Assembly: GCA_031426555.1 (NCBI GenBank)
Contig: JANPLN010000023.1
Location: 214-64,213, forward strand
Direction: 5' to 3'
Length of the DNA stretch: 64,000 bases
Origin: Bdellovibrionales bacterium
Lineage (GTDB): Bacteria > Bdellovibrionota > Bdellovibrionia > Bdellovibrionales > JAGQZY01
A program made the position numbers and the translations under genes. The number at the start of each line of letters is the position of its first letter. The first letter of the stretch is position 1. Below are positions 13,852 to 48,660 of this stretch, piece by piece. The notes below the pieces were generated by a model. That model did no database searches. It saw nothing but the letters and a program-made list of their open reading frames with translations, and was not told the origin of the DNA.

Positions 13852-13931
<80 letters not shown>

Positions 13932-18177: not shown

Positions 18178-18180
18178 TCG

Positions 18181-20391: not shown

Positions 20392-20412
20392 CAAAATAGA
20401 ATCTCCTTGACG

Positions 20413-20450: not shown

Positions 20451-20465
20451 CACAAAAGGCGGTTT

Positions 20466-20765: not shown

Positions 20766-20785
20766 CCACGAGAAGGAAGTACATT

Positions 20786-23155: not shown

Positions 23156-23263
23156 TTGCTTTCGCAGGTCAGCAAAACTTTGGCCTGCAACTTTTTAGTT
23201 CTGTTAAGTTGAACTGTCAATTTTTACACAGAAAAGTCGTAATTTGCTAAAGTATAGGCAATC

Positions 23264-23608: not shown

Positions 23609-23637
23609 AAATTATTTCCTTATTTAAAAAAGTCTGT

Positions 23638-24888: not shown

Positions 24889-24935
24889 AAAAAACCCCGT
24901 GAGTTAATAGGGCCTAAAATTAGGCCCAAGAATAT

Positions 24936-28300: not shown

Positions 28301-28519
28301 TAGAACACTTTCTACTGGAAGTGTGACAAGTGTCTCCACCTCTTCTGGGGCAAGCCCATGGGCTTCAGTGAGCACGGTCACGGTTGGTCTATTTAGATTA
28401 GGAAACACGTCTACAGGTAGATTGGGCACCAACCAAGCCCCATACAAACAAATAGCTATTGAAAATATAACCATTGTCAGACGGTGTTTTAAAGAAAACC
28501 TTATTATTAAGTTCAGCAT
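25385..28519 (-). CDS. cusA: Heavy-metal efflux RND transporter, CusA/CzcA family
   Basis: 1044 aa, 12-TM RND topology with two large periplasmic loops, N-terminal MLNLIIRFSLKHRL... typical of HME-RND. Confidence 0.85.
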   Translation of the reverse strand: MLNLIIRFSLKHRLTMVIFSIAICLYGAWLVPNLPVDVFPNLNRPTVTVLTEAHGLAPEEVETLVTLPVESVLNGTPGVLRTRSSSGIGVSIVYVEFDWGTEIFKNRQLVAERLQLVQNRLPPGMQPVMGPVTSIMGEIQFVGVTSPNGQTSSMDLRTLADWTLRPRLMTIPGVSQVIVMGGEVKQYQILISSQKLQAKNISLEDLKHAITEISENTTGGFIDINDKEFLIRPIGRVASLEDIENSFVGMHFGKPVLVKDVAQVRIGAKTKRGEGSINAKHSVIMTVQKQPSASTIDLTKAIDKELIEAQKTLPQGVHLETDLFKQSHFIESAIGNVEEALRDGIIMVAIILFLFLMNFRTTGITLVAIPLSLLVTAIVFQIMGLGINTMTLGGIAIAIGELVDDAIVDVENVFRRLKENRALGSPKGNLRVIYEASSEVRNSIVLSTIIVVLVFIPLFALGGIEGRLFAPLGIAYIISIIASLFVSLTVTPILCSFLLPSSKAVGHDKDGPLVRFLKAKALVILHYTLPRPKIVLLGAGLLLLFSLALLPFMGRNFLPDFNEGTATIGVAAAPGISLSASDKLGAEIEKAILSVPEVKSTVRRTGRAEMDEHAEGVHWSEIDVDFKAEGRPMHVVLPEIRERIEKTGDVYVNLGQPISHRLDHLLSGVRAQIAVKIFGPDLGELRRYGGEIFDAMKSVNGVVDLQTEPLVLIPQLKITIDRESGNQFGIRAGTLAEDLEIALNGEVASQFLENQRIHDVFMRLDDESRATTEKINQTLIKYMPTGKPVLLQDVANVYEGTGPNMINREDMQRRIVVSANTQGRDLGTIVSEIQKVIADKVKLPEGYFIKIGGQFESQQNASKRIFWLGLLSLLGIFLVLYIHFRSAILSLQVMMNVPLAVIGSIIAIYLTERTLSIATLVAFITLCGIASRNGILLISHYLHLMKEEGEEFNAQMVIRGSLERLVPVLMTASTAALALVPLLLSKGEPGKEILYPVAVVIVGGLISSTLLDLVVTPTIFLKFGKKAFINYMKQQNQTNEGEWK

Positions 28520-28642
28520 ATTGATCTCCGCTTAAGCGAGCCAGCTTAAAAATTCTTTTAAAAAAGAAATTACCAAAGGATTAAGATAGATATAAAATCT
28601 AGCTAAAAAATAGCATTAATTTTTAATATCAATTCTTCGTTT

Positions 28643-29029
28643 TTAGCTGATTGGAGGGCGAAATATAGACCCTAAAATAGGACTTTTAGGGGGTAAATCA
28701 TCATAAATAGAAAATGAAACTGACTCAATCTTAGAAACTGTTTTAAAACTAGTGAGCTGTGAAGCAGTCACAAAGTAGCTACTCGACATTGAAATTGAAA
28801 CTTTGTGAGAGTGTGGTGCAGACGAATCGTGATCTTTGTCTTCATCATTTTGATGATCGTCGTGATGGTAATCTTCTTCGTCTAAATCATGGTGATGATG
28901 TTCTGACACTAACTCATGTGTATGTTCTATTTCAACAGTTACAGCAGGTCCAACAGACCTTGATGGGTCAGAAAAACTTGTACCCAAGGCATAAGTGCTG
29001 ATTATGAGTAAGCAGATAATTAATCTCAT
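28643..29029 (-). CDS. Secreted His/Asp-rich protein (putative metal-binding)
   Basis: Signal peptide, then EHTHELVSEHHHHDLDEEDYHHDDHQNDEDKDHDSSAPHSHK. First gene of the RND operon. Confidence 0.55.
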   Translation of the reverse strand: MRLIICLLIISTYALGTSFSDPSRSVGPAVTVEIEHTHELVSEHHHHDLDEEDYHHDDHQNDEDKDHDSSAPHSHKVSISMSSSYFVTASQLTSFKTVSKIESVSFSIYDDLPPKSPILGSIFRPPIS

Positions 29030-29135
29030 CGACTTTATTATCTCTAACTTTACTTATTAAACGCAAGTAAAAATGTACGCTTGCCCGTATTATTTTTATC
29101 TCAGCTCTTTACTTTCGTTAAGAGCTGAGCTTGTT

Positions 29136-30254
29136 CTATTTACCTAGGATAACTTGTTCGACTTTTGGAGCAACCAAACAGTATGATTCGTCATTCGTCT
29201 GATCACATTCAAATGTGGCAGCTTTATGAAACCTCACAAGACATCCTGGATTTACCATTGCCAGCTCCCCTTCTGATGCGTCAAGTTCATAAGCACAGAA
29301 CTCAATATCATCATCGGTAAATGAGATGTCCAGATCTACGTCAGGAGCCATCCAATCGCCCTTAAAGTTATATGAATCTTGCCCAAATCTAACCCTCGGA
29401 TTGAATGTCACACCATTAAAAGGTTTAAACGGCGTTACTCTAATAGCTCTTAGGTTTATAGCACCACCTGGATCATTGCCATCAGAAGTAATATAGGGCT
29501 GATAGTCATACATTCTTTGGATTATGTCTTCGACAGCAAGAGGGTATATGTTTGTACTTCTCTGCGCCCATTGCTGAATGATTCCAGGATCGTTACCTGC
29601 ATGAGCAGGATCTATTTCAACGAAACCTAAAGTGAAAACAAACAAAAGGCTTAAAATCATGTCGTAGAACTTAAGTCTCCTAAAATTTAGACCGTCTATC
29701 TTTCCTTTTTTAGCGTTATCATGTGCAAACTGTTTTGATTTAAATTTTATAGCTTGGAACATGGCTTTTAACTCCATTGTTTGTTCTGGTGTAAAGAATG
29801 AATCAATTGAATAGTAAGCTCTTGTCTTCCAGTATTCTGGCTTACCTGTGTTTTCTTTCATAATCTCAAAGACCTTGGCGTCTTTCTTAGCCTCAAGATC
29901 TGAGTCGTACTTATAGTCCGAATAGTTAATATAGTTTTCGGGAAAGTTCGAATAATACTTTCCTTCACTAGTGATATGCACAAGACCGCAATCCACATAT
30001 CTAGTTAATACTGATAATGCTTTTTTAGGTGATGGCTCAGGAAATCTTCTTTTCACTTCCCCAAGTGAAAGACTCTGAACTCTTGTTGCATAGAACAACT
30101 TAAGCGAATATTCATCTGCATGAATTTCTTCGATTTGCTCGGGCTGAAGCCTGATGTTTGGCAAATCCTTTAATGTTGTATCTTGTACGTCCCCAATACG
30201 TTTCTCTGTATTTGGCTGCTCCTTTGGCAACCTACTCTCTTTTTCTATTTCCAT
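29136..30254 (-). CDS. Membrane-anchored protein: cytoplasmic winged-helix-like N-domain, one TM, Cys-containing extracytoplasmic C-domain (ToxR-like architecture)
   Basis: LGEVKRRFPEPSPKKALSVLTRYVDCGLVHITSEGKYY looks like a wHTH. TM helix ILSLLFVFTLGFV near residue 205. The C-terminal ~155 aa has 4 Cys. Confidence 0.5.
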   Translation of the reverse strand: MEIEKESRLPKEQPNTEKRIGDVQDTTLKDLPNIRLQPEQIEEIHADEYSLKLFYATRVQSLSLGEVKRRFPEPSPKKALSVLTRYVDCGLVHITSEGKYYSNFPENYINYSDYKYDSDLEAKKDAKVFEIMKENTGKPEYWKTRAYYSIDSFFTPEQTMELKAMFQAIKFKSKQFAHDNAKKGKIDGLNFRRLKFYDMILSLLFVFTLGFVEIDPAHAGNDPGIIQQWAQRSTNIYPLAVEDIIQRMYDYQPYITSDGNDPGGAINLRAIRVTPFKPFNGVTFNPRVRFGQDSYNFKGDWMAPDVDLDISFTDDDIEFCAYELDASEGELAMVNPGCLVRFHKAATFECDQTNDESYCLVAPKVEQVILGK

Positions 30255-30280
30255 TTCATCCCCCCGGAGAAATTAGTTGT

Positions 30281-30727
30281 TTACTTTCTTATCCTTACCC
30301 TATCTGCATGATTGCTTCGTGGCCTTTGATCTGATGATGACTGTCTTGAGAGGACGGCTACGAGTTCTTGCAAATATTCTTTTTTATCTTTTCCCACATC
30401 TTTCGATGTAAAATAAACTTGAGCTTCTAATGTTTTTATTAAACGCTGGTAGTCATCAAACGGAATCTCGCGCAATGCTTCGATCACTTTGATTTCTTCT
30501 GCGTAAACAAAAGCATCATCACTTGAAGAAAAAACATTTAGATTTACACCTAAACAATGAGCGATTCGAACTAGCTCATTAGCCGTTGCTTCTCTCTTGC
30601 CATTCTCAATTTTTGAGACGGAAGACTTTGGCAACTGGGCCATCTCATCAAGTTCGGCTTGAGTGATCTCTTTCGCCTTTCTTAATGATTTTATTTTATC
30701 TGCTAAATCGTGCTGTCTATTCTTCAT
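30281..30727 (-). CDS. XRE-family HTH transcriptional regulator
   Basis: ITQAELDEMAQLPKSSVSKIENGKREATANELVRIAHCLGV is a canonical Cro/C1 HTH. Confidence 0.85.
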   Translation of the reverse strand: MKNRQHDLADKIKSLRKAKEITQAELDEMAQLPKSSVSKIENGKREATANELVRIAHCLGVNLNVFSSSDDAFVYAEEIKVIEALREIPFDDYQRLIKTLEAQVYFTSKDVGKDKKEYLQELVAVLSRQSSSDQRPRSNHADRVRIRK

Positions 30728-37038: not shown

Positions 37039-37626
37039 ATGGTACAAAAAATTAAACTCTCAGCGAATCAACTTCCTCAGAAAATGGCCGAGCTCATTCA
37101 TTCAAATCAGTTTTTAAAATTGTTTAGCCTAATCAGCCTTGCTGTTTTAATTCTTGCTTTTGCGACCATCATCTTAATGACGACTCGCGCACCAGCCGTT
37201 ATTGCTTTTGATATGACGGCTAATACTCTTGAGGCTCAAAAGCTACCTGATGTAAAATTGCTGATTGAAAGAGCAGTAGTTGAATACATCAAGCACCGCT
37301 ACGACTGGACACCCAATAACGTGAACCAGAAATTAGACAAGGCTCGAAGCTTTATTAATGGAAGTCATGAATCTGCATTTACCCAAGCAACAAGAAAAGT
37401 AGCTGATTTTAGTCACGACAAAAAAGTAATTCAAAGGGCTTTCCCCACTGATATCCAAATTGACCTAAAAAATCAGACGGCCAAAGTAGTCGGCGAAAGA
37501 GTAACATCTATCATGGGAATTCGAGCCGCTGGTGAATTGAAGGTGGAGCTCCACTTCACCTCTGGGCCTCATACCAAGGCTAATCCTTGGGGCGTGTATA
37601 TTTCTAAGGAAGTAGAGCTTTTATAA
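37039..37626 (+). CDS. virB8: VirB8/TrbF-like T4SS protein
   Basis: Single N-terminal TM, a periplasmic NTF2-like domain ending NPWGVYISK, 195 aa. Confidence 0.65.
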   Translation: MVQKIKLSANQLPQKMAELIHSNQFLKLFSLISLAVLILAFATIILMTTRAPAVIAFDMTANTLEAQKLPDVKLLIERAVVEYIKHRYDWTPNNVNQKLDKARSFINGSHESAFTQATRKVADFSHDKKVIQRAFPTDIQIDLKNQTAKVVGERVTSIMGIRAAGELKVELHFTSGPHTKANPWGVYISKEVELL

Positions 37627-37664: not shown

Positions 37665-38075
37665 TTATTTATACTCGCTTTGGAAAGATTTAATTTTTTT
37701 ACTAATTTCATCTCTAGCTGTTCGGAAAGCATCTTTTTTTTTATCTTCCTTTGCAGAAGCTGGATCATTTATTGGCCAATGAAGACGCTTAGCTCTTGAT
37801 GGTAAATAGGGACAGACCTCTTCTGCACATAAAGTAATAACAAAATCTAATTTTTCCAAAAATTCTGGCGAAAGCTCATCTGTAGATTTTGAAAAGTTTT
37901 TAGAGATATCAATATTTATTTCTTTAAGAACTTCAACGGCCCAAGGCTGCACTTTACCCGAAGGCACTGACCCAGCGCTTTCGACATTGTCTTTGCTTCC
38001 TAATATTGATTTTGCTAAACCTTCAGCGAGCTGGCTGCGAGCAGAGTTAGCAACGCATAAAAATAATATGTTCAT
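37665..38075 (-). CDS. arsC: Arsenate reductase, LMW-PTPase (thioredoxin-coupled) type
   Basis: CVANSARS P-loop and the downstream Cys pair LCAEEVCP. Confidence 0.85.
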
Positions 38076-39130
38076 ACAAACTCCTTAAAGTATTTTTTCT
38101 TAAACCACAATGATACGCTAACTAGTAAAATTAGAACTGGAACTTCGACTAAAGGACCTATTACGGCAGCAAATGCAGCTCCGTGATGAATTCCAAAAGT
38201 GGCGATGGCTACAGCAATAGCCAGTTCAAAATTATTAGAAGCCGCAGTAAAGGAAAGTGTGGCCGACTTTTCATAATCTGCTCCTGCTTTTTTACTCATA
38301 TAAAATGACAAAAGAAACATGAGTAGAAAATAAATAAGCAGTGGAATAGAAATTCTAAGAACATCAAGTGGAAGCTCTAAGACTTTTTCTCCTTTTAAGG
38401 AAAACATGACTACAATCGTAAACAGTAAAAACACCAAGGTAATTGGAGAAATTTTAGGTATAAATTCAGTCTCAAACCATTTTTTGCCTTTTGATTTCAT
38501 CAAAATCTTTCGACTAAAATAGCCTGCAAAAAAGGGAAGGCCTAAGTAAATCAATACTGCACCTGCAACATCCCAAATACTGATATTAACTTCTACGGTT
38601 TGTATTCCTAACCAACCAGGTGCCGTGGTTAGAAAGAAGTAAGCTAGAAAGGGGAAAGTAAAAATTTGAAAAAGAGAGTTAAGCGCCACAAGTCCCGCAC
38701 AGTACTCTCGACTTCCGCCAGCTAAATCATTCCAAACAATGACCATGGCAATACATCTTGCAAGACCAATAAGTATTAAGCCCGTCATGTACTCAGGATA
38801 ATCTCGTAAGAATATGACCGCGAACGCAAACATAAGTACCGGACCCAGCAACCAGTTTTGAACCAGTGATAGGATCAATACCCTCGTATTTTTGAAAACC
38901 TGAGGCATCTCTTCATATTTTACTTTAGCTAGAGGTGGATACATCATCAGTATCAAACCGATAGCTATAGGAATTGACGTTGAGCCGACAGACATTCTTT
39001 CAAGGGCGTTTGAGAATTGAGGTACAAACTTACCCAAAAAAATACCCAAGCCCATAGACATAAATATCCATAAAGTTAAATACCTGTCTAAAAATGATAG
39101 TTTGCCGATGATTGATTGATCTTGGTTCAT
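38072..39130 (-). CDS. acr3: ACR3-family arsenite efflux permease
   Basis: 352 aa, 10 TM, N-terminal [13 protein letters not shown] typical of ACR3. Overlaps arsC by 4 nt. Confidence 0.85.
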
Positions 39131-39148
39131 TTACATTCTCCAGTTGCT

Positions 39149-39166
39149 TATCGTATAGTTACGATA
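39149..39166. promoter_or_regulatory. Palindrome TATCGTA-tagt-TACGATA in the acr3/arsR divergent region (candidate ArsR operator)
   Basis: 7-bp arms, 13 nt upstream of the arsR ATG. Confidence 0.4.
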
Positions 39167-39178
39167 TACATTAAGCAA

Positions 39179-39526
39179 ATGGCTCTATCAAGAATAAATG
39201 ACTTTCCAGAAAAAGATGTTCAACTCGCAGAATGGTGTAAAGCACTTTCGCACCCCGCCAGAATTGAAATTTTAAGGACCTTAGCAAATCGTGGCGAATG
39301 CATTTGTGGAGATCTTGTTCTTGATTTACCACTAGCTCAATCTACCGTGAGCCAACACCTTAAAGCTCTTAAAGAAATAGGCCTCGTACAAGGAGAAGTG
39401 GATGGACCTAGATCTCTATACTGCATTGATAAAAAGAACTTCGCTAAATTCATAAAGGCTTTTGGACTATTTGGAGAGCTAATAAATCAAAAACTTAATG
39501 ATGAGGCCTGTAAAGTTAAGCTTTAG
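39179..39526 (+). CDS. arsR: ArsR/SmtB-family metalloregulator
   Basis: Start at the internal ATG (MALSRIN...). [26 protein letters not shown] carries the CxC As(III) site, and [17 protein letters not shown] is the wHTH. Confidence 0.85.
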
Positions 39527-39562
39527 GTCTAGCTAATTAAGAGCAGCTTACAATATTCCGAT

Positions 39563-39994
39563 ATGCCGAAGATGAGATGGCTTAATAGACGTCTGAATAA
39601 ATTAATCTCGTCCTTACTAACACTTCCATTTGTTCTTATTTTTCTATTCTTTCGCTGGCTCTTATTTGGCAAACGTCTTAGTTCTGATGGCTATGTCATC
39701 AAGAAATCAAACTATGGTCGCGAAAGATATGAACACCGAGAGATCGCAGAACGAATCTTGGGTCGCCCCTTAGAGCCAAGAGAAGTCGTGCATCACATAA
39801 ATGGTCGTCGAGATGATAATAGACCTTCAAATTTATGCGTTATGGATCGGGTAGATCACGATCGCTATCACAAATGGTACGATTGGGTCCGTGAAAACTA
39901 TGGCAAGTATCCTCGAAAATCAACTCAGTTGAGAAAACTAAGGGAAGATTTTCATGGATTGCCTCTCAGCGATGTTCCGAATAGGAAGTACTAA
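39563..39994 (+). CDS. HNH endonuclease-domain protein with N-terminal hydrophobic helix
   Basis: VVHHINGRRDDNRPSNLCVMDRVDHDRYH is the H-N-H motif. The N-terminal LISSLLTLPFVLIFLFFRWLLF looks like a TM anchor. Confidence 0.7.
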   Translation: MPKMRWLNRRLNKLISSLLTLPFVLIFLFFRWLLFGKRLSSDGYVIKKSNYGRERYEHREIAERILGRPLEPREVVHHINGRRDDNRPSNLCVMDRVDHDRYHKWYDWVRENYGKYPRKSTQLRKLREDFHGLPLSDVPNRKY

Positions 39995-40144
39995 TTTAGC
40001 TTCAATGTGGTCAATATACCTTATTATAGGCTAGATGGAACTTTAGCTAGAATTTACTTGCTCACTGATTGTCTCAAACTGAGAACTTAATATCCTAATG
40101 TTTTCAATTACTTATATATGAAAGCAGATATGCTTGCAGTAAGA

Positions 40145-40174
40145 TGTCACATTTTTCTATTGAAAAATGTGACA
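40145..40174. promoter_or_regulatory. 13-bp perfect inverted repeat upstream of abiEi (candidate autoregulatory operator)
   Basis: TGTCACATTTTTC-tatt-GAAAAATGTGACA, ending 32 nt before the abiEi ATG. Confidence 0.5.
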
Positions 40175-40206
40175 CAATCCGATAACATTATATGTAGGAG
40201 TAAACT

Positions 40207-40926
40207 ATGAGCCTAGCTGGTTCTATCGAACAAAAGATTAGCCAACTATCACCAGGAGAGGTGTTCTCTTCTAGTCAGCTTAAACTCATTAGCACTGCGG
40301 GAGCACGCCAAGCTATTTCAAGATTAGAAAAAAAAGGTCTCATTCAAAGATTAGATGGTATTCAAAGTCTCTATTATATTCCTAAAAAAGGAATACTTGG
40401 CGACATTAAGCCAACCAGAGGTCAAATTATAGAGGCCATCATCAATGGGCGAAAAAAAGGCTACCGTACAGGTCTTAGCCTCTACAACATGATGGGCCTC
40501 ACAACCCAAGTCCCTGGCTCTGTGACCATAGCTACTGAAGCTACCCCACAAAGTACGACCGTAGCAGGATTAGAAATAAAGTTTGTTAAAGCTAAAGGTC
40601 CTATCACTGAGGAGTCTATCCCACTTTTGCAAATCCTAGATGTTATTAGTGATTTAAAAGATATTCCCGACACAACACCCGACATGGTTTTCACAAAAAT
40701 AATTAAAACAATTAAAAACTTAGAAGAAAAACCCATGAAGTTATTAACGACACTGGCTTTGAAGTATCCTAAAAGAGTTCAGGCTCTTGTGGGAGCAACG
40801 TTTGAATTTCTAAAGGAAGATGAACTTGCTACAAAGATAAGAAAAAATCTAAACTTAGGCTCAGCTTACAACATCGGAATAAGCGAATCATTACTTCCAA
40901 ATAAATCCAACTGGAATATCCTATGA
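40207..40926 (+). CDS. abiEi: AbiEi-like type IV toxin-antitoxin antitoxin (wHTH, DUF6088-like)
   Basis: N-terminal GARQAISRLEKKGLIQRL..LYYIP wHTH. 4-nt overlap with the downstream AbiEii gene. Confidence 0.7.
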   Translation: MSLAGSIEQKISQLSPGEVFSSSQLKLISTAGARQAISRLEKKGLIQRLDGIQSLYYIPKKGILGDIKPTRGQIIEAIINGRKKGYRTGLSLYNMMGLTTQVPGSVTIATEATPQSTTVAGLEIKFVKAKGPITEESIPLLQILDVISDLKDIPDTTPDMVFTKIIKTIKNLEEKPMKLLTTLALKYPKRVQALVGATFEFLKEDELATKIRKNLNLGSAYNIGISESLLPNKSNWNIL

Positions 40927-41792
40927 AGCTACACGAACATAAAGAAAATTTTATTGAACTAATCCAAAACACTAGCTCTGCACTTGGAATTCAAGATATT
41001 TTTATAGAAAAAGATTACTGGGTAACATACGTTTTAAAAAATCTCACCTCATGGGACAAAAACAAGACGATTGTTTTTAAGGGTGGAACTTCTTTATCTA
41101 AAGCCTACAAACTTATTGATAGATTCTCTGAGGACATAGATTTAGTTCTGAAAGATACGACCTTAAATGGCAACCAAATTAAAACAGCTATCACCAACGC
41201 GCAAAAAAGCTGTGTTCAGCTACCTCTTAAAGAGGTAGAAGCTGATAGGACCTCTAAGGGATCAAGAATTAGAAAAGTTGATTGTTCCTACCCGCAAATA
41301 TTGGATGAGTATCAGTTCGGTGATGCAAGCGACAAATTACTTATTGAGGTTAATTCTTTTTCAAAACCATTTCCAGTGGTTGAAAAAACAATTGGTTCTT
41401 ATGTTTTCCAAATGTTACAGGACTTAGAAAGAACAGATCTCATTGAAAAATTCGAACTTAAGCCTTTCACGATAGAGGTACTAGACTTTAAACAAACATT
41501 TTGTGAAAAAATAATGAGTCTACTTCGTATAAGCCAAAAGAATGATGCCAAGGAGCAGTTAAGAAAAAAGATTCGTCACTTTTACGACATCAGTAAACTC
41601 GTCAGCGATTCAGAAATTCTAAATTTTATTAAATCAAAAGAGTTTTCTGATTCTTTAAAGAATATTTACAAAAACGATTTGTTAAATCCAGAGTTTCAAC
41701 AAGATTGGACAATGACAGATGTTTCTAACATAAATCTTATTGCAAACTTTGATTCACTATTTGATGAACTAGAACCGACGTTCAAGGGATAA
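40923..41792 (+). CDS. abiEii: AbiEii/AbiGii-family nucleotidyltransferase toxin
   Basis: IVFKGGTSLSKAYKLIDRFSEDIDLV is the family signature. Confidence 0.8.
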   Translation: MKLHEHKENFIELIQNTSSALGIQDIFIEKDYWVTYVLKNLTSWDKNKTIVFKGGTSLSKAYKLIDRFSEDIDLVLKDTTLNGNQIKTAITNAQKSCVQLPLKEVEADRTSKGSRIRKVDCSYPQILDEYQFGDASDKLLIEVNSFSKPFPVVEKTIGSYVFQMLQDLERTDLIEKFELKPFTIEVLDFKQTFCEKIMSLLRISQKNDAKEQLRKKIRHFYDISKLVSDSEILNFIKSKEFSDSLKNIYKNDLLNPEFQQDWTMTDVSNINLIANFDSLFDELEPTFKG

Positions 41793-41922: not shown

Positions 41923-42633
41923 ATGCCCCTATTTAAAATAGGTGCGCTCTGCTTTATTGTCTTGGCATTTGCCACGGCAAAGGCAGACGTGCGCCATGTG
42001 GAAGCTAAAAAAGATCAAATCATAGCCGTTAAAACAGCCGTAGGGATTGCAACCATCATACAAGTACCCGATAGACCCACAAGTGTCGTGATCGGTGACC
42101 AGTCCGCATTTAAAGTTGAATACCTAGATCGAGCGATCACCATTAAGCCGCTGATACCCAATGCTAGAACCAACCTTTACATCTATACAGATTGGCAAAG
42201 GTACAACATCAAGCTTGTTCCTACTGACAAGAACCAAGCTGATTTTGTTGTTTACCTCCAACCCAAAACCATTAAGCACGAATCTTTTAGTATCAGATGG
42301 AAGGATTTTAAAAATCACCTGAAAAGTAATGACTTACGAGTTGATATTTTAAAATTGGGCTCAACCAAGAATGGACTCTACTTAATTGAGTTCGATATCC
42401 AGTCTTTAAAAAAAGAAGCATTTAAGCCTGAGTGGATTTGGTTAACTCAAAATGGGAGAACAATACCAATTCATAAACTTGCACTTAATGAGCTTAAATT
42501 AAAACCCGATAAAAAGGTTTCTGGACTGATCATCACTAAAAAAGAGGATCTATCCACACACTCCCCCATCCGATTTGAAATCCGAAGAGATAAAACTTCT
42601 TACCTCACAATCATGGAGCCAAGACGATGGTAG
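41923..42633 (+). CDS. virB9: VirB9/TrbG-like T4SS outer-membrane core protein
   Basis: Signal peptide. AFKVEYLDRAITIKPLIPNARTNLYIYTDWQRYNIKLV matches the VirB9 N-domain pattern. Confidence 0.7.
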   Translation: MPLFKIGALCFIVLAFATAKADVRHVEAKKDQIIAVKTAVGIATIIQVPDRPTSVVIGDQSAFKVEYLDRAITIKPLIPNARTNLYIYTDWQRYNIKLVPTDKNQADFVVYLQPKTIKHESFSIRWKDFKNHLKSNDLRVDILKLGSTKNGLYLIEFDIQSLKKEAFKPEWIWLTQNGRTIPIHKLALNELKLKPDKKVSGLIITKKEDLSTHSPIRFEIRRDKTSYLTIMEPRRW

Positions 42634-43565
42634 ATAGAATTAAAAAAATATTTTTAAAAGAGCCTCTGCCTTTTACAAATAAAAGAGACCTTAATTGGCA
42701 GATTATTAAGAAAGCAACTGCTGTAAGTCTGTTAAGTTTAGTTGTTGTGCTTTTGATAATGCCTGCTCCTGATGAAAGCAATGCTACTTTTGCAGAGGAG
42801 CGACACCAAACTTATGTAGAAAAGGAAAATGAAGTTGAAAAAATAAATAACGAAACACTAGAAGTATTATCCGGAGGATCTAAATACAGAAAAGCTCCCA
42901 GCAACTTAAATCACCTTTATGGATCATCATCCTTAGCAAGTAGCTCAGATAAAAATACTGGTTCGATGATTATCGCTAGAAATGATCTTCAGTCAGGAAA
43001 CACACTTCCGATGAGTTCTACCATTCCGCTTATACTTCCAGCTTCAATCAAGGTGGAAGGACAGCAGATACCCGTTATGGCGCTCGTAACTCAAGATGTT
43101 TACTACAAAGAGAATTTAGCCATACCCAAGGGCTCATCACTCTTTGGTCATGCAAGTACGTCAACCAGGAATCGAGTCAGTATTGAATGGATTCAGGTGC
43201 AGTTTGCAGATGGTAGCGAAAAGAAGATTCAGGCAACTTCTATGGGAGCTGATGGACGGATTGGAGTGGCAGGAGAACTTAATGGCAATGCTGCCACCAA
43301 CACTCTTGGTCTGGGTCTTACCAAACTTATTGGGGCCTACGCTGAAGGGTCACAGGAAACGGGGCCGTTTGGCGCAAACCGTGGTGGTCATGAGAATGGA
43401 CTTAGAAATGCCGTTGCTGAAACAGCTCGCGATAGAAGCGAGGACTGGGCTCGTCAACTTCAAGAGCAAGTGAGATGGGTCACCATCAGAGAAGGCACCA
43501 CTCTTAATGCACTCGTCACACAACCTTTTGTCTTCAGAGATCCAGGAGCTAGCTATGGGCAATGA
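42627..43565 (+). CDS. virB10: VirB10/TrbI-like T4SS core protein
   Basis: N-terminal TM, a linker, and a TrbI-like C-domain (IPLILPASI...ALVTQDVYY...RVSIEWIQVQFADG...GADGRIGVAGELN). Confidence 0.7.
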   Translation: MVDRIKKIFLKEPLPFTNKRDLNWQIIKKATAVSLLSLVVVLLIMPAPDESNATFAEERHQTYVEKENEVEKINNETLEVLSGGSKYRKAPSNLNHLYGSSSLASSSDKNTGSMIIARNDLQSGNTLPMSSTIPLILPASIKVEGQQIPVMALVTQDVYYKENLAIPKGSSLFGHASTSTRNRVSIEWIQVQFADGSEKKIQATSMGADGRIGVAGELNGNAATNTLGLGLTKLIGAYAEGSQETGPFGANRGGHENGLRNAVAETARDRSEDWARQLQEQVRWVTIREGTTLNALVTQPFVFRDPGASYGQ

Positions 43566-45174
43566 CCACGACAACACTTTAAGTATGCTCTTTATGACTG
43601 TCTTTGGTTTTGGGCTTATTTGGCTTCATGGAAAATCTTCGTTCATCATTGAATTTCTAAACCTAAAAGAAACCCAGGCACTAATCTTCATTCTCATATT
43701 TTCAACGATCTATCTTGGAAGCTTTTACTTTTTCAGGTGGATGGACAGACGAAAAGACAGATTAAAACTCGAAGGACAAGTGCATGAGAAAAAACCTAGT
43801 TCCTCTTTTTGTGGTTTTGATAAGGAAACTAAAAAGCCCGTCTATGTGACCGAAGCCCAAAGAACAATGCACACACAAGTGCTGGGCACTACCAACGCAG
43901 GTAAAACCGAGTCAGTGATTTTGCCTTGGGCGATTCAGGACATAGAAAAAGGAAACGGACTAATCATCATTGATGGCAAATCTGACCGAGGGCTTTTAAA
44001 TAAATTATGGAGCTACACCTGTAAACATGGACGAGAAAAAGACTTCTGCTTATTTTCTTTAGGAAATATTGAGGAATCCTCCCAATACAATCCACTGATT
44101 GGCAATACTGCGGAAGAGGTCATTGAAAGGGTCTTTAGTGCCTTTGAGTTTGATAATAGCTACTACAAAAACGTTCAGTTCGAAGTGTTCTCAAATCTGA
44201 TAAGACTTTTCTTTGAAGCTAAGGTGGGACTTACTTTTAAAAGACTGCATTTAGCACTTACTGATAAAAACTATTTAAGAGCACTTAGTCAAAAGATTGA
44301 AAGCACAGAGCTTGACCAATGGTCTCTGGACTTTCTATCTTTGACGGCCTCAGAGCGAGAGCAAAGAATCAGCGGACTCAAAGCCTCAATCAGTCACTTC
44401 GCAAACGGAAATACTTCGGCTTTGTTTAATTCAACCGACCCCTTTATTGATATTGATCGAGCTTTAAAAGAAAATAAGATTATTTATTTTCAACTGCCCG
44501 TCTTGCTAAGTCCTTTTCTTGGTACAGCTACAGGTAAAATGATTCTGCAGAATATTCAAAGTGCTGTAGCCAATCGCCACCGAGGACTAGATCGAAAGCC
44601 TAAGTTCTTTTCAATCTTCTTAGATGATTTTACCGAATATCTTTATCCGGGCTTTGTCTCGATCTTAAATAAATCAAGAAGTGCAAACGTTGGGATCGTG
44701 TTTGCTCACCAAGCTTTAGGAGATATCAAAGCTATTGGAGATTCGATTGCAAATTCCATTTTAACAAACTCGAACTTAAAAATATTTATGAGGGGCAATG
44801 ACCCTGAATCAGCTGAATATTTTTCGAGAGTCATAGGTACTAGAAAAACAACTAAGTTAACCGAAAGGAGAACTCAAGCATTTTTTCAGGACAAAAACAC
44901 TGGAGAAAAATCAGCCCGAGAAGTTGATGAATTTATAATTCATCCCAACAAGTTCAAAAATGAACTAGGCACTGGGGAAGCAATTATGATTATCCCCTTA
45001 AGTACAGGAGCCAAAGCTGTCGAAATAAAGTTTGAAATGTTTCCCGACATAACCACCAAAAAAGAAATTTTAGGTGTAAAAAATTATCCTTCTGAAATTC
45101 GAACTATAAAAACCGAGGAAAAGAAAACGAATGTAAAACCATTATTAGAAAATATGGAGCAACTATGTATTTAA
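43555..45174 (+). CDS. virD4: VirD4/TraG-family type IV coupling protein
   Basis: Start at ATG 43555 (MGNDHDN). Two N-terminal TM helices, Walker A GTTNAGKTES, Walker B-like FFSIFLDDFTEY. Confidence 0.85.
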   Translation: MGNDHDNTLSMLFMTVFGFGLIWLHGKSSFIIEFLNLKETQALIFILIFSTIYLGSFYFFRWMDRRKDRLKLEGQVHEKKPSSSFCGFDKETKKPVYVTEAQRTMHTQVLGTTNAGKTESVILPWAIQDIEKGNGLIIIDGKSDRGLLNKLWSYTCKHGREKDFCLFSLGNIEESSQYNPLIGNTAEEVIERVFSAFEFDNSYYKNVQFEVFSNLIRLFFEAKVGLTFKRLHLALTDKNYLRALSQKIESTELDQWSLDFLSLTASEREQRISGLKASISHFANGNTSALFNSTDPFIDIDRALKENKIIYFQLPVLLSPFLGTATGKMILQNIQSAVANRHRGLDRKPKFFSIFLDDFTEYLYPGFVSILNKSRSANVGIVFAHQALGDIKAIGDSIANSILTNSNLKIFMRGNDPESAEYFSRVIGTRKTTKLTERRTQAFFQDKNTGEKSAREVDEFIIHPNKFKNELGTGEAIMIIPLSTGAKAVEIKFEMFPDITTKKEILGVKNYPSEIRTIKTEEKKTNVKPLLENMEQLCI

Positions 45175-45614
45175 GTACGAAATATTTAAAAAACTATTTA
45201 ATCTCGATCGCAATCCCTTTCTGCTTAATCTCTTCCGGCTGCTCAAGCCTTGGAAAGTCGATTGGACTTGGTGGAGGAATTGGAGCTGGAACGGGCGCAG
45301 TCCTCGGCGGCATTGCTGACCCTGGGGCTGGTGGCAAGTATAGAACCCGAAACGTAGTTATTGGAGCAACCCTCGGTGGCCTTACTGGCATGGCCCTTGG
45401 GTCTACGATCCATGGGATGAAAGAAGATGAGAGGAAAAAAGGATATCTTGAGGGAAAGAGCGCAAAGTCCAACTTAGCCCAAGGACTTCCACCTAACTTA
45501 AGCGATCCAAGAGTTGAAACAAGGTGGATCGAAGGCAGAGCAGTGGGTAATAAATATGTAGAAGGTCATTTCGAATACGTCATCGCAGAACCCACAAGAT
45601 GGGACGTGGATTGA
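45165..45614 (+). CDS. Glycine-zipper lipoprotein (VirB7/entry-exclusion-like by position)
   Basis: Lipobox ISSGC, then GLGGGIGAGTGAVLGGIADPGAGG. Confidence 0.55.
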   Translation: MYLSTKYLKNYLISIAIPFCLISSGCSSLGKSIGLGGGIGAGTGAVLGGIADPGAGGKYRTRNVVIGATLGGLTGMALGSTIHGMKEDERKKGYLEGKSAKSNLAQGLPPNLSDPRVETRWIEGRAVGNKYVEGHFEYVIAEPTRWDVD

Positions 45615-46246
45615 TGAGGCCATTTATAATTCCAACTCAGGAAATTATACTTGCATCAAAGTGTGGATTCTTAACGAAAAGTATTTGGAATAAATACCTT
45701 AACAAAAAGTGTAGAAGTTGGGCTTACGAAACATGGCTGGGATATTTAAACCGTGGAATCTTTAAACCCTACGGCAAACATAAAGACGGCTCCATTGTCG
45801 TCTTAAACCGTAAATCTGACTTGGTTCAAAAGCTTGTAGGATTTGATTTCACTCCACCACCCTATGCGTACCAACTTAATCATGACGAGATGGTTGTTGA
45901 TTTCGTTCTTAAGCTTTACAGAGATAAGAAGATCACGAGCTACTTTTTTGAACCTGAGCTTAAAAGAAATCCTGACATTTTTGGCTTAAAGAATACCGAC
46001 AAAATGCCCGACGCAATCGTCAAAAATGAATCTTTTAAATACGCCATAGAACTTGAGCTGAGTAAGAAAAATCCCAAGCGCTACCGCCAAGCTCTTGAAT
46101 CCTACGCTTCGATGACACTCATTGATGAAGTTTACTATCTAACGAACACCCAGAACATCAAAAACCAGATTATGAAAACAGCTCGACAGATTCAGTATCC
46201 ATCGAAGCTTAGGCCCCTCCGATTTACGATGATTGAAGCTAGCTAG
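45614..46246 (+). CDS. Replication-relaxation-family-like protein (PD..ExE..K nuclease-like motif); candidate non-canonical relaxase
   Basis: ATG 45614 overlaps the upstream stop (TGATG). NHDEMVVDFVLKL...MPDAIV...AIELELSKKNPKRY resembles the H-D / PD / E.D..t pattern of Replic_Relax proteins. Tentative. Confidence 0.4.
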   Translation: MRPFIIPTQEIILASKCGFLTKSIWNKYLNKKCRSWAYETWLGYLNRGIFKPYGKHKDGSIVVLNRKSDLVQKLVGFDFTPPPYAYQLNHDEMVVDFVLKLYRDKKITSYFFEPELKRNPDIFGLKNTDKMPDAIVKNESFKYAIELELSKKNPKRYRQALESYASMTLIDEVYYLTNTQNIKNQIMKTARQIQYPSKLRPLRFTMIEAS

Positions 46247-46454
46247 TTATCCGAACGAAAGCCGAACATCGGTTCGGATAACTAAAATTGAGATCTCTAA
46301 AAAATGAGAACAATTAAATAATCTAATCAACACCTTACCCCCGCCGCCTCTTTTGAATCCTTTCTGATCGGTTGGAGACCACTCCCCCTCCACGATGTTA
46401 CGGGAAAGTGGTCTCCAACCTGAAAGAATACAAAAATCGGCGGCGGGGGTAAGG
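46246..46454. other. Cluster of strong inverted repeats, candidate oriT
   Basis: IR1 is GTTATCCGAAC/GTTCGGATAAC (46246-46256 and 46272-46282), with a third CCGAAC in the loop. IR2 has outer 16-bp GC-rich arms CCTTACCCCCGCCGCC/GGCGGCGGGGGTAAGG (46333-46348 and 46439-46454). These enclose an inner 14-bp IR, GGTTGGAGACCACT/AGTGGTCTCCAACC (46370-46383 and 46407-46420). Confidence 0.4.
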
Positions 46455-46474
46455 AAAATATTAAAGGAAATAAA

Positions 46475-46846
46475 ATGGAAAACAAAGAATTAGAACAAAA
46501 AAAAGAAATACAAAACAACAAAAGAAAACGAGAAGAGCATTATCGAGTGATCTTAACAAAAAGTGCAAATATGGCATTAGAGTCGTTTACAAATAAGATA
46601 AGCGATGAAGTCTCGTTTTCTAACATTACAAAATCTGACGTTGCAAATTGGCTACTTGAACGCATTGAAAAGAAGATCTCGACTTCAGAAGCTAATGAAA
46701 TTCTTGATTCTAATTTTGATGAAACCAAGGCTCTAAATAATCTTCTTAAAAATCATAAGAACGGAGTTCAGGATCTCCCACAAGAAATTGCACTCGCACT
46801 AAAGTCACATTTAAAAATGAGTAGAAAATCAAAAAAAGCTAGCTAA
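46475..46846 (+). CDS. Small K/E-rich protein, possible relaxosome accessory/RHH-like
   Basis: 123 aa. A basic N-terminus is followed by HYRVILTKSANMALESF (beta-strand/helix typical of RHH-type proteins). The call is mainly positional. Confidence 0.35.
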   Translation: MENKELEQKKEIQNNKRKREEHYRVILTKSANMALESFTNKISDEVSFSNITKSDVANWLLERIEKKISTSEANEILDSNFDETKALNNLLKNHKNGVQDLPQEIALALKSHLKMSRKSKKAS

Positions 46847-46941
46847 CTAAATTTTAAATACGAAGCCTAATGATTTTAGAATCTTAGGTGCCCCTAAAAA
46901 TCAATCTTGCCCTTGAATGGGCCCCTCACTAGGAGTATAAC

Positions 46942-47169
46942 ATGAGTACTTATAAGCTTCCGGAATCGGAAGAATTATGGCTCTTTGACAAAAGAATATC
47001 GGAGCATGAGTGGCTTTCTACTGAAGAAGCAGCTCGTTTTTTGTCGATCTCTACTAACGCCCTTAGGATTATGGTTTATCGAGAACAAATCAAAGCCTAT
47101 AAGTTTGGTAGGCGTCTAAGATTTAGAATGCATGACTGCAAAGCTCTCTTTATAAAAAAAGGAGCTTAA
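46942..47169 (+). CDS. xis: Excisionase-family HTH protein
   Basis: WLSTEEAARFLSISTNALRIMVYREQIKAYKFGRRLRF is the MerR-like excisionase HTH. It sits immediately upstream of int. Confidence 0.8.
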   Translation: MSTYKLPESEELWLFDKRISEHEWLSTEEAARFLSISTNALRIMVYREQIKAYKFGRRLRFRMHDCKALFIKKGA

Positions 47170-47170
47170 A

Positions 47171-48271
47171 ATGGCAATCAGACTTTATACACTAAACGAA
47201 AAACGACTATGGGAAGTACAAGTCAGCGGAACAGACGCGCTAGGAAATCGTCTGCAAAGACGACGACGCGGTTTTGAAACCCGTCGAGCGGCTGAGAAGT
47301 TTGAATTCGAACTAAAACGCGAACTCAGAATGATCAAAGATACGGCCATACCACCTCGATGGGGTGAATGGCTTCCTGTCTGTCTAGAACGGATGAAGCT
47401 TGTACACAGACCGTCTACGGTTGAAAACTACTCAAGAACATTAGGCAAGTGGGTCACACCATCTTGGAAAGATAAAGATTTAACAGACATCTCAAAAGCT
47501 GATGTTTACTCATTAGTTTATGAATCTTTAAATCCTGAACTTTCCCCGTGGTCTAAAAAAACAATTCTAAAGTTCATAAAAAGGATTTTACAAATGGCAG
47601 TCGAAGAAGGAATTCTTGCAAGAAATCCTTCTGTAGGAGTCAAAGTTACTGTTCCTGAAACTGATCAAAAAGTTTTAACGAATAGTGAAGTTGAAATTTT
47701 CCTAAAAGAAGCCAAAGCTTACAATCACAGATTTTATCCTATATGGGTCATGGCCCTATTAACTGGAATGAGATCAGGTGAAATGTATGCATTGAAATGG
47801 TCTGACGTAGATTTTGACGTTGGGATCATTACTGTAAAAAGACAATGGACGAGCAAGAATGGTTTTGGACCCACTAAAACCCAACGCAGTAGGGTTGTTC
47901 CTATTGCAGAGGATTTGTCTAAGTTTTTAAAGGAACTGAAACTTAAAAATGACGGAAGTGAATATGTGCTTCCCCAATTGCCTGAATGGACCCAAGGGGC
48001 TCAAGCTGAGGTCACCAGAGAGTTTTGTGAGGCCATCCAAATCACGTCGATTAAGTTCCATGATTTGAGGGCTACGTTTATCACAAACTTACTGACCCGA
48101 GGCGAAACGCTAGCACGAGTGATGTCTATAGTTGGCCACAGCCAGATTAAAACCACGAATGTTTACCTCAGAAAAGCTGGGATTGATGTTCAAGGGGCTA
48201 CTGACAAACTTGGATATGGCGTCCCACAGGGCATTTCAGGACAAGTTATCCCTTTAAAAACCAAGGGTTAG
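47171..48271 (+). CDS. int: Tyrosine site-specific recombinase (integrase)
   Basis: GMRSGEMYALKW (Arg box I), and HDLRATFITNLL...GHSQIKTTNVYLR (H-x-x-R ... H ... Y). Confidence 0.9.
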   Translation: MAIRLYTLNEKRLWEVQVSGTDALGNRLQRRRRGFETRRAAEKFEFELKRELRMIKDTAIPPRWGEWLPVCLERMKLVHRPSTVENYSRTLGKWVTPSWKDKDLTDISKADVYSLVYESLNPELSPWSKKTILKFIKRILQMAVEEGILARNPSVGVKVTVPETDQKVLTNSEVEIFLKEAKAYNHRFYPIWVMALLTGMRSGEMYALKWSDVDFDVGIITVKRQWTSKNGFGPTKTQRSRVVPIAEDLSKFLKELKLKNDGSEYVLPQLPEWTQGAQAEVTREFCEAIQITSIKFHDLRATFITNLLTRGETLARVMSIVGHSQIKTTNVYLRKAGIDVQGATDKLGYGVPQGISGQVIPLKTKG

Positions 48272-48366
48272 ACACCAAACCGCTTAAAATGTAGTTGAAG
48301 CTGCAAATGGCTTCTGCTACTTTAAAATAACAAGCGATTCAGGGTGCTTAAAGATTGAGCCGAACA

Positions 48367-48377
48367 CCCGACCAATT
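48367..48377 (+). repeat. attR core CCCGACCAATT
   Basis: Identical to 13921-13931. Lies 96 bp downstream of the int stop. Confidence 0.6.
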
Positions 48378-48390
48378 AAACTATTCAGGG

Positions 48391-48434
48391 TTTATAAAAA
48401 GGATCAAAGATCCTTTTTATAAACCTTTTTTTTT
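48391..48434 (+). terminator. Strong rho-independent terminator (likely the original tRNA-Pro terminator)
   Basis: Perfect 15-bp stem TTTATAAAAAGGATC-aaa-GATCCTTTTTATAAA, then CC and T9. Confidence 0.7.
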
Positions 48435-48660
48435 GCGTCCGAGGAATCAGGATTCAAACCTGCGAAACTCAGGTCCACTAGAAACCCGGGACCAGAGGCT
48501 GTGCCCGCGTTAAAACGATCCAGTGGATCGTTTTAATGTGGAGCATGGAGAAATAAAATTTGCGAAGGCAAATTTTATTACGACCTCGGCGCAGCCGAGT
48601 GTTCGAATCCGAGTGATAAACCGGGCTGTCTCATTCAAGTCCGAACCCGCACAAAAAAAC
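48435..48660. other. Hairpin-dense intergenic segment with tRNA-Pro-related fragments (candidate structured RNA or relic att scars)
   Basis: Perfect 12-bp hairpins at 48510-48536 and 48552-48579, and a 6-bp hairpin at 48585-48599. There is a 17/18 inverted match to the tRNA-Pro T arm (48448-48465 vs 13899-13916). There is also an 11-nt direct match, GGGACCAGAGG (48488-48498 vs 13887-13897). Confidence 0.3.

Follow-up and report, generated by a model that had tools for sequence, protein, structure and literature searches.

A candidate divergent MOBC-type relaxase and its putative origin of transfer in an integrative conjugative element of a Bdellovibrionales bacterium

Introduction

MOBC is one of the nine accepted relaxase classes and the least understood of them. 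It unites the restriction-endonuclease-like relaxases, an established group typified by MobC of CloDF13 and TraX of pAD1 (PMC12857230, PMC6736028), though one seldom recognized, and is reported to be, along with MOBM, the most abundant relaxase class in integrative conjugative elements (ICEs) (preprint 10.64898/2026.01.13.699239). MOBC relaxases are PD-(D/E)xK enzymes with a DEE metal-binding motif, and Y181 of TraX is reported as essential for transfer (PMC6736028). They display no HUH motif, no covalent DNA intermediate has been detected for them, and how they pilot and rejoin the strand is unclear (PMC12857230, PMC6736028). The domain plan of TraX includes an N-terminal winged helix, and the protein is reported to bind five direct repeats situated 70-120 bp from the nick site, nic (PMC12857230). 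In CloDF13, nic has the published sequence 5'-GGGTG/GTCGGG-3' (Nunez & de la Cruz 2001, cited after PMC5935869). Here, we describe a 64,000-nucleotide stretch of DNA from a Bdellovibrionales bacterium (positions 214 to 64,213 of contig JANPLN010000023.1, assembly GCA_031426555.1; hereinafter the window), which contains an ICE coding for a 210-amino-acid (aa) protein that is probably a divergent member of the MOBC class. The repeats that follow its gene are very probably the origin of transfer (oriT), and the locus thus offers a clean and testable model for this class.

Two oriT regions are the closest points of reference. In pAM373, which PLSDB types as MOBC and whose TraX homologue itself passes Pfam Replic_Relax, the oriT region lies between the gene for the type IV coupling protein (T4CP) and the traX-like gene. 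It is built as a 142-bp nested repeat with outer arms of 18 nt and inner arms of 25 nt. The inner arms read ...TTCCTGACCATTTTAGCG, the loop opens with CAACG and five direct repeats at 12-bp spacing flank the structure. In CloDF13, GC-rich outer arms (9650-9663 and 9770-9783) surround the inner arms CGGCTGACCACCCGCAAAA and TTTTGTGGGTGGTCGGGCG, and the nic falls inside the inner right arm TTTTGTGGGTGGTCGGGCG, within the hexamer GTGGTC.

A candidate MOBC relaxase encoded next to the coupling protein gene

The MOBC-type relaxase candidate is encoded on the + strand at 45614..46246, and its assignment draws on NCBIfam, hhalign, an AlphaFold model, a conserved motif and synteny. The longest open reading frame (ORF) here, 45599-46246, would yield 215 aa by starting at an upstream ATG (45599) that is an alternative to the one at 45614. 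The homologues use the start at 45614, and M6 of the 215-aa form, on which all residue numbers below are based, is nearly invariant. Across 87 homologues, G23, E151, E153 and K157 are invariant, while H95, D96, E118, K135, P137, D138, R161, Y162 and Y169 are conserved in at least 90%. The DEE metal motif of MOBC is thus present as D138, E151 and E153.

The only curated family to give a signal with this protein is NF041423 (MobC_subf, "MobC family replication-relaxation protein"; E = 1.9e-7, 30.6 bits), and the match covers residues 131-199, which is the region of the catalytic motif. The same family is matched by 78 of the 87 homologues, with a best E-value of 8.7e-14, all of them under its cut-off. 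Comparison by hhalign of a profile of the homologues with the pAM373 TraX homologue yielded a probability of 89% (E = 2.3e-6) over 158 columns that include the winged-helix part, and it paired D152/E170/E172/K176/R180-Y181 of pAM373 with D138/E151/E153/K157/R161-Y162. Y162 thereby aligns with the tyrosine of RRYRE, which is residue 181 in the pAM373 homologue and, on the assumption that pAD1 and pAM373 share a common numbering, the counterpart of Y181 of TraX. In CloDF13, whose mobC region is frameshifted, this profile matches fragments of that region, at KxPD...AxExExxxK...RY. The RefSeq record of this plasmid (L005, NC_002119) distributes mobC (6469-7202) between two reading frames and labels the pieces as short hypothetical proteins, and CloDF13, the prototype of MOBC, is typed "non-mobilizable" by MOB-suite/PLSDB.

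The AlphaFold model, computed from a 10-sequence alignment, has a predicted local distance difference test score (pLDDT) of 87.4 and a predicted template modelling score (pTM) of 0.84. Its N-terminus consists of helices (13-51) followed by a beta-hairpin (55-69). When compared with PDB structures by Foldseek, the N-terminal half recovers winged-helix proteins (S25, TubR, ZitR and SqrR), and the C-terminal half recovers PD-(D/E)xK proteins, namely the R.BspD6I small subunit, Cdn1, VC1899, EcoT38I, AF1548, Can2, Hjc and HincII. The region of the pAM373 homologue that aligns with the N-terminal winged helix has an HTH_45 signal. This confident model thus shows a winged helix at the N-terminus and a PD-(D/E)xK domain at the C-terminus, a domain plan that agrees with the one described for TraX in PMC12857230.

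The relatives of this protein are numerous and are readily overlooked. Only HMMER, run exhaustively against 1.84 billion cluster representatives, made the family visible, with 244 of them at E <= 1e-3, mostly of 235-275 aa. A word-index search with the 210-aa protein found two relatives only, and such searches gave 2, 9 and 3 proteins overall. A sequence search of the PDB with the 215-aa form returned nothing meaningful, and tblastn against plasmids produced a single weak match, from Cytobacillus, at 29% identity. The nearest genomes carrying the gene are metagenome-assembled genomes of Bdellovibrionales.

Pfam was run on all ORFs of the island (~13.9-48.4 kb) with a length of 100 aa or more, and NCBIfam in addition on those left without an assignment. 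No match to the Relaxase, MobA_MobL, TrwC, TraI_2, Mob_Pre or Rep_trans families was found among them. Neither these ORFs nor the 210-aa protein have a relaxase domain with the HUH/3H metal motif and catalytic Tyr (MOBF/MOBP/MOBQ/MOBV), and the scans of the island likewise returned no MOBH (TraI_2/HD) or MOBT (Rep_trans) match. The sole tyrosine recombinase of the island is an arm-binding integrase, which lies beside xis and ~100 bp from the candidate attR. The 210-aa protein is therefore the best and only relaxase candidate of the element. With the HUH classes (MOBF/P/Q/V), MOBH, MOBT and MOBM it would have only the role in common: nicking oriT site-specifically, beside an inverted repeat, and coupling to a T4CP of the VirD4 type. 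Its fold is unrelated to theirs, with no HUH/3H motif, HD domain, Rep_trans or tyrosine-recombinase fold.

A preliminary description of the locus, made from the sequence alone, had held that the element lacks a MOB-type relaxase and that the protein in question recalls the Replic_Relax or PD-(D/E)xK group. The second of these statements is borne out by the NF041423 signal, hhalign and the AlphaFold fold. The first stands insofar as no HUH, MOBH or MOBT domain emerged in the scans, and fails insofar as the 210-aa protein fits the established MOBC class. Detection of a standard relaxase had been named there as an outcome that would overturn the idea, and for the HUH type the Pfam and NCBIfam scans of the island ORFs detected none. 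The ORF and repeat coordinates it gave hold, with the start at 45614 giving 210 aa, and the H-D...PDAIV...IELELSKK pattern to which it drew attention is real and conserved across the 87 homologues. Of the profile and structure searches that it had proposed for two proteins, those with the 210-aa protein were productive (a MobC signal and a PD-(D/E)xK fold), while those with the 123-aa protein encoded after the repeats led to no family and a model of pLDDT 56.

Conserved linkage to the transfer genes

The order VirB9, VirB10, T4CP, lipoprotein and relaxase-like gene is kept in the related loci L007-L009, whose contigs reach VirB9/VirB10, and the order T4CP-lipoprotein-relaxase-like gene is kept in L007-L010, where protein identity is 22-30%. 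L011, the most distant relative at 17%, has its relaxase-like gene directly after that of the T4CP, with no lipoprotein gene called. Where the contig extends to a recombinase gene downstream, the type differs: the window and L001 have a tyrosine integrase, L007 and L008 a large serine recombinase. Since the type of recombinase varies while the slot next to the T4CP is fixed, the gene is linked to the transfer machinery and not to the recombinase.

This linkage bears on the explanation that the 210-aa nuclease has another job, such as defense, replication or resolution, with the processing for transfer being left to a MOBM-type activity of the integrase or to a relaxase acting in trans. The multifunctionality of PD-(D/E)xK folds, the predominance of restriction enzymes and CRISPR ancillary nucleases among the best structural matches and the curated MOBC thresholds that the protein does not reach are compatible with such a scenario, as is the resemblance to tyrosine recombinases of the MOBM relaxases common in ICEs (preprint 10.64898/2026.01.13.699239). 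Yet, the gene directly follows the T4CP-lipoprotein pair in L007-L010 (and the T4CP in L011) whichever recombinase comes after it, the core of its cognate hairpin is that nicked by MobC in CloDF13, and the homology to the TraX homologue spans the whole protein, winged helix included. Moreover, the arm-binding domain of the integrase, the adjacent xis and the ~100 bp separating it from the candidate attR are typical of a bona fide integrase. On this evidence, we regard a different function for the nuclease as very improbable and favor its role as the relaxase of the element.

Repeats downstream of the relaxase gene as the probable origin of transfer

The first of two repeat structures abuts the stop codon of the relaxase candidate. 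It is a perfect 13-bp inverted repeat (46244..46284; arms 46244-46256 and 46272-46284, 100% complementary) that contains CCGAAC words and constitutes a candidate protein-binding site. Two direct copies of CCGAAC (46251-46256 and 46262-46267) lie 11 nt apart, and a third is inverted, as GTTCGG, at 46272-46277. This arrangement of a 6-10-nt word in two direct copies and one inverted copy within 70 nt past the stop codon recurs in 13 of 39 related loci, as against 1.5% of shuffles, with the direct copies again 11-12 nt apart. The word itself is locus-specific: CCGAAC in the window, and ACTAGAGCC, TTAGCCCA, CAATATGC and, in L072, AAGTGGCCCT elsewhere. A constant design filled with an element-specific word is the pattern that a candidate specificity-determining binding site would show.

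The second structure is a nested inverted repeat. Its GC-rich outer arms, CCCCCGCCGCC (46333..46354) and GGCGGCGGGGG (46433..46454), are 22 nt long and 91% complementary. They enclose inner arms of 19 nt (89% complementary), GGTTGGAGACCACTCCCCC on the left (46370..46388, with the core GACCAC at 46377-46382) and GGGAAAGTGGTCTCCAACC on the right (46402..46420, with GTGGTC at 46408-46413, as brought out by the comparison with CloDF13). Between the latter lies the loop TCCACGATGTTAC (46389..46401, + strand), the 5' part of which is conserved in L001, L004, L007-L011 and pAM373, reading (C/T)C(A/C/T)ACG in the relatives and CAACG in pAM373. As a single strand of DNA, the stretch 46240-46470 folds with -57.6 kcal/mol, in comparison to -20.8 +/- 3.2 in 200 shuffles (z = -11.6). 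The proximal part of the inner stem (46383-46388/46402-46407) pairs TCCCCC with GG(G)AA(A/G), in related loci as well. Its conserved C.A mismatches on the + strand amount to G.T wobbles on the - strand, an asymmetry kept throughout the clade that may tell the recognized strand from the other.

A nested repeat is present 3' of the gene in every relative that was anchored on the protein, including distant ones not chosen by their DNA, and compensatory changes are seen in its stem. Between the window and the loci with 59% identity the inner hairpin is nearly unchanged, save for one compensatory pair (GGTTGGAGACC/GGTCTCCAACC to GGCTGGAGACC/GGTCTCCAGCC). The inner hairpin of these distant relatives can be written as variable stem-GACC(A/C)C-TCCCCC-(C/T)C(A/C)ACG...-loop-GGAAG-G(T/G)GGTC-variable stem.

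We also scanned metagenomes starting from the motif, with the pattern GACCMCTCCCCCYCHACGA, which covers the left arm and the loop, and obtained at least 120 loci; evidence independent of this seed comes only from the right arm, the distal stem, the outer repeat and the neighboring genes. Among the matches listed, a complementary right arm, which lies outside the pattern, is present in 89 of 120, and most of the others look like chance occurrences in GC-rich DNA. In the same set, 49 loci have a relaxase-like ORF that ends 59-195 bp upstream on the same strand (mostly at ~140 bp), one further locus has such an ORF 475 bp upstream of the hairpin, and in 7-9 loci a more distant relaxase-like ORF starts just downstream of it. 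One of these downstream ORFs passes Pfam Replic_Relax (30.0 vs 25.3 bits), and another narrowly misses it at 24.7. At the six positions of the stem that lie beyond the core, 70-78 of 78 distinct sequences (90-100%) have Watson-Crick pairs, with all four pair types represented, and G.T pairs are almost absent from this variable stem. Of 75 related loci, 68 have the hairpin enclosed by an outer repeat of 8 nt or more, as opposed to 11 of 75 shuffled controls, and the span from core hexamer to core hexamer ranges from 31 to 49 nt across loci.

Could the repeats be transcriptional signals, either a terminator of the operon of the type IV secretion system (T4SS) and relaxase genes or an operator for the operon of the 123-aa gene, xis and int? 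They do sit between two co-directional gene blocks, with the first repeat abutting a stop codon, their fold is very stable at the above -57.6 kcal/mol, and a dual role as signal and oriT is possible. As a substitute for an oriT, we consider such signals quite unlikely: no + strand T-run follows either repeat and a terminator scan calls none on that strand there. Two direct copies and an inverted one at a spacing of one helical turn would be needless for a terminator, as would an asymmetric loop and a core conserved in sequence at 17-30% protein identity. A core-to-core span of 31-49 nt misfits a dimeric operator with fixed half-site spacing, and the same hairpin is found elsewhere upstream of Replic_Relax genes and beside genes for serine recombinases.

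A different possibility is that the hairpin acts on the transferred single strand, as a single-strand promoter, as a site from which complementary-strand synthesis is primed in the recipient, or as a single-strand origin of replication, and that the nick occurs elsewhere. The size and stability of the hairpin (z = -11.6), the asymmetry of a proximal stem that is C-rich on one side and G-rich on the other, and the conserved C.A mismatch would fit strand-specific recognition of this kind. Against this, the near-absence of G.T pairs in the variable stem points to a constraint on both strands or on the duplex, and in CloDF13 it is the equivalent arm that contains nic. While a single-strand role and nicking are not mutually exclusive, we give little credence to the former in place of the latter and retain oriT as the interpretation of the repeats.

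Two further candidate identities for the hairpin were discarded. An Rfam scan of 45000-48500 for structured RNAs gave a best E-value of 0.11, to a Plasmodium RNA, which is not credible, and the stem is almost without G.T pairs. The hairpin is also no attP, being intact inside the integrated element and occurring with both tyrosine and serine recombinases. A literature search with the hairpin sequence turned up unrelated eukaryotic papers and none on bacteria, the key MOBC papers being outside its reach.

Comparison with the oriT regions of pAM373 and CloDF13

The protein shares with those of pAD1 and pAM373 an N-terminal winged helix, a PD-(D/E)xK domain, the D...ExE...K...RY signature with its tyrosine aligned to residue 181, and a gene located near that of the T4CP. 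Its identity to the pAM373 protein in the profile-to-sequence alignment is ~18% over the aligned columns, it has 210 aa compared to 261 aa, and, unlike that protein, it is missed by Pfam Replic_Relax. The DNA parallels the pAM373 oriT in being a large nested inverted repeat (122 bp in the window, 142 bp in pAM373), in having element-specific repeats at 11-12-bp spacing ~100 bp from the center of the hairpin, in the TGACC of the inner arm and in the start of the loop (CCACG in the window, CAACG in pAM373). The repeats themselves number three in the window, two direct and one inverted, as against five direct copies. The settings are also dissimilar: the window derives from a Gram-negative predator lineage and has an ICE with a VirB-type T4SS, whereas pAD1 and pAM373 are pheromone plasmids of a Firmicute, Enterococcus faecalis.

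In CloDF13, too, a GC-rich outer repeat encloses an inner repeat, with arms CTGACCACCC / GGGTGGTC, and its nic hexamer corresponds to GTGGTC at 46408-46413 of the window. CloDF13 differs in lacking the C-rich TCCCCC...ACGA loop motif of the window clade, and in being a small mobilizable plasmid dependent on MobB and a helper T4SS, whereas the element in the window has its own T4SS and T4CP. A nested-repeat design with a TGACC/GGTCA core is thus common to the window, pAM373 and CloDF13 in this comparison of architectures, and the shared core hints at a nic structure that may be class-wide.

The preliminary description had delineated the same repeats. Its inverted repeat with three CCGAAC copies at the stop codon reappears as the perfect 13-nt arms with two direct copies and one inverted copy, its nested 16-bp and 14-bp arms are the perfect cores of the 22-nt and 19-nt arms, and the small basic protein followed by xis-int that it placed after the repeats matches the ORFs and domains found there. 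Its proposal of a candidate oriT at this position is very probably right, given the conservation and the architecture in common with CloDF13 and pAM373. Its alternative that the inverted repeats merely terminate transcription is disfavored, since the coding strand has no T-run after either of them. Its notion of a relaxosome made of non-standard parts is not supported: MOBC is an established class, and nested repeats along with repeats spaced by one turn also occur in the oriT regions of pAM373 and CloDF13.

Weighing the assignment and a proposed mechanism

Several observations weigh against the assignment of this protein and its repeats to MOBC. The 210/215-aa protein has no Pfam match at E <= 0.1, and the 30.6 bits with NF041423 fall short of a cut-off of 200, such that both resources leave it below curated thresholds. 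The family assignment consequently rests on profile-to-sequence comparison, fold and motifs. PF13814 Replic_Relax is matched by none of the 87 clade members at E <= 0.01, and NCBI labels the 59%-identical homologue a "hypothetical protein". The protein is thus too divergent for curated models, and in this respect the preliminary description, which saw no canonical relaxase, had a point. The best Foldseek E-value is ~5e-4, with TM-scores of 0.3-0.4. With regard to the DNA, the metagenome scan was seeded by the left-arm and loop motif, and the conservation of that motif in the loci thus obtained is circular. The likeness of TGACC and CAACG to pAM373 and CloDF13 is short and could partly be coincidence. 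The oriT of the window would lie downstream of the relaxase gene, unlike that of pAM373, which is between the T4CP and relaxase genes. Lastly, MOBC chemistry is itself unsettled (PMC12857230), and the mechanistic steps are hence drawn by analogy. Taking both sides together, we consider it likely, on the grounds of sequence comparison and modeling, that the 210-aa protein is a divergent MOBC relaxase of the ICE and that 46244-46454 is its oriT.

Against the background of the observed protein fold, motifs, synteny and DNA conservation, we infer the following course of events. The N-terminal winged helix would dock on the CCGAAC repeats, of which two are direct copies one helical turn apart and one is inverted. 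About 100-150 bp away, the nested inverted repeat would extrude or melt into a hairpin or cruciform. In the PD-(D/E)xK domain, D138, E151 and E153 would bind metal, with K157 and Y162 nearby, and one strand would be cut in or beside the GACCAC/GTGGTC core. By analogy with CloDF13, this cut is predicted at GTG/GTC, i.e., between 46410 and 46411 on the + strand; both position and strand are taken over from CloDF13, the + strand being chosen because the transfer genes are assumed to enter last, as they do there, and the mirror position in GACCAC on the - strand being the alternative. The adjacent T4CP would then pass the nicked strand to the T4SS, and the 123-aa protein may act as an accessory factor.

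Implications for the detection and diversity of MOBC elements

While the MOBC class was known already, what is unusual here is a clade that stays under every curated threshold tested and that databases call hypothetical, together with a probable oriT located 3' of the relaxase gene and a conserved 123-aa protein after the hairpin in ~32 loci. The window adds to this class a compact, well-modeled candidate member of 210 aa from a putatively self-transmissible Gram-negative ICE, and a precisely delimited candidate oriT in which 46244-46284 would be the binding site and 46370-46420 the nic hairpin, with a predicted cut at GTG/GTC. The comparison of ~80 distinct hairpins tells a conserved putative catalytic core apart from variable specificity repeats. 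Finders of ICEs or relaxases that depend on cut-offs would probably score such elements as relaxase-less, an example being this copper/arsenic ICE of Bdellovibrionales. The hairpin motif is a simple marker for them and for possible hitchhikers that have an oriT only.

Concerning such hitchhikers, an oriT-type hairpin lies ~200-430 bp upstream of a gene for a large serine recombinase in ~15 metagenome loci (L024, L025, L035, L040, L050, L055, L070, L081, L084, L099, L101, L114, L115, L118 and L132). Within the DNA fetched for these loci, there is no relaxase-like ORF, T4CP, VirB9/10 or lipoprotein homologue, and the upstream genes in those with usable sequence resemble cargo or host genes. These may be relaxase-less islands with nothing but an oriT, which are mobilized in trans.

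A broader picture would join four elements: a large, mostly environmental and unannotated clade of short MOBC proteins (at least 244 clusters at 50% identity) missed by all curated thresholds; a MOBC-wide nested-hairpin core, TGACC(A/C)C / G(T/G)GGTCA, around the nick; specificity conferred by element-specific repeats spaced by one turn; and hitchhiking islands with an oriT only. We put this forward tentatively, as the chance that all four hold jointly is, in our estimation, slightly below even.

The 123-aa protein encoded after the hairpin

The hairpin is followed by a gene for a small basic protein of 123 aa (46475..46846, + strand) that has no family assignment, and homologues of which are encoded directly downstream of the hairpin in the aforesaid ~32 loci. 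The consensus of the family is RIxISKxA..L....VNDGF.GG.VNR.Q.ANWIL....IR..HFDE...LE.ILR.AK. The protein has no Pfam or PDB match, a search of the PDB with the family profile gave chance matches to coiled coils only, and its AlphaFold model is unusable at the pLDDT given above. Its position makes it a candidate relaxosome accessory protein or regulator, and the N-terminal "RV(I/V)L(T/N)K..A" leads us to suspect an accessory protein of the ribbon-helix-helix type.

The integrated element and its cargo

The window holds an ICE of ~34 kb inserted in tRNA-Pro, at roughly 13.93-48.38 kb. ARAGORN places the integration target, a tRNA-Pro (UGG), at 13852..13928 on the + strand, at the left end of the island. 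An 11-bp direct repeat, CCCGACCAATT, which overlaps the 3' end of this tRNA (13921..13931, +), is the candidate attL core, and its exact second copy (48367..48377, +) is the candidate attR core. The repeat being short, these att assignments are ones that we infer. The GC content drops from ~0.47-0.48 outside to 0.35-0.44 inside ~14-48.4 kb, starting directly after tRNA-Pro, and is back to ~0.48 beyond the second copy. The boundaries of the island are drawn from the CCCGACCAATT repeat and this GC step only. The island combines the hallmarks of an ICE, namely int and xis, a T4SS, a T4CP and a bounded region of low GC, to which the relaxase and oriT would be added as argued above.

The transfer genes, as identified by Pfam and NCBIfam, code for VirB2, VirB4, VirB8, VirB9, VirB10 and a VirD4/TraD-type T4CP; VirB11 and VirB1 were not found among the island ORFs, and the signal for VirB6 is weak. 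The VirD4/TraD-like T4CP has 555 aa (43507..45174, +; Pfam T4SS-DNA_transf 6e-13 and TraG-D_C 4e-12, NCBIfam SXT_TraD 8e-37). It is followed by a 149-aa glycine-zipper lipoprotein (45165..45614, +) with a weak match to Pfam Gly-zipper_YMGG; a gene with a match to the same family occupies this slot between the T4CP and relaxase genes in L007-L010, and a homologue of the lipoprotein occurs in 31 of the 56 metagenome loci that have a relaxase-like ORF. The stop codon of the lipoprotein gene overlaps the ATG of the relaxase candidate (ATGA), which suggests translational coupling. Downstream of the 123-aa gene are an HTH_17 excisionase (46942..47169, +; Pfam HTH_17 5.7e-9, TIGR01764 excise 2.2e-7) and the tyrosine integrase with its arm-binding domain (47171..48271, +; Pfam Phage_integrase 6e-24, Arm-DNA-bind_4 6e-6), the latter at the island end distal to tRNA-Pro.

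The cargo comprises copper genes, an efflux pump of the resistance-nodulation-division (RND) type and ars genes, along with an AbiE toxin-antitoxin pair. Metal-resistance cargo fills the left part of the island (15846-30727), which encodes an extracytoplasmic function (ECF)-type sigma factor (15846-16358), a multicopper oxidase (18181-20391), a copper P-type ATPase (20786-23155) and, on the - strand, an outer-membrane efflux protein (23638-24888), the RND pump (25385-28519), a 372-aa ORF without a family match (29136-30254) and the HTH_3 regulator that it adjoins (30281-30727). The arsenic cargo splits the T4SS block: a stretch at 37665-41792, between virB8 (37039-37626) and virB9 (41923-42633), codes for an ArsC-like low-molecular-weight phosphatase (37665-38075, -), an ACR3/SBF transporter (38072-39130, -), ArsR (39116-39526), an HNH endonuclease (39563-39994) and the AbiEi/AbiEii toxin-antitoxin pair (40207-41792).

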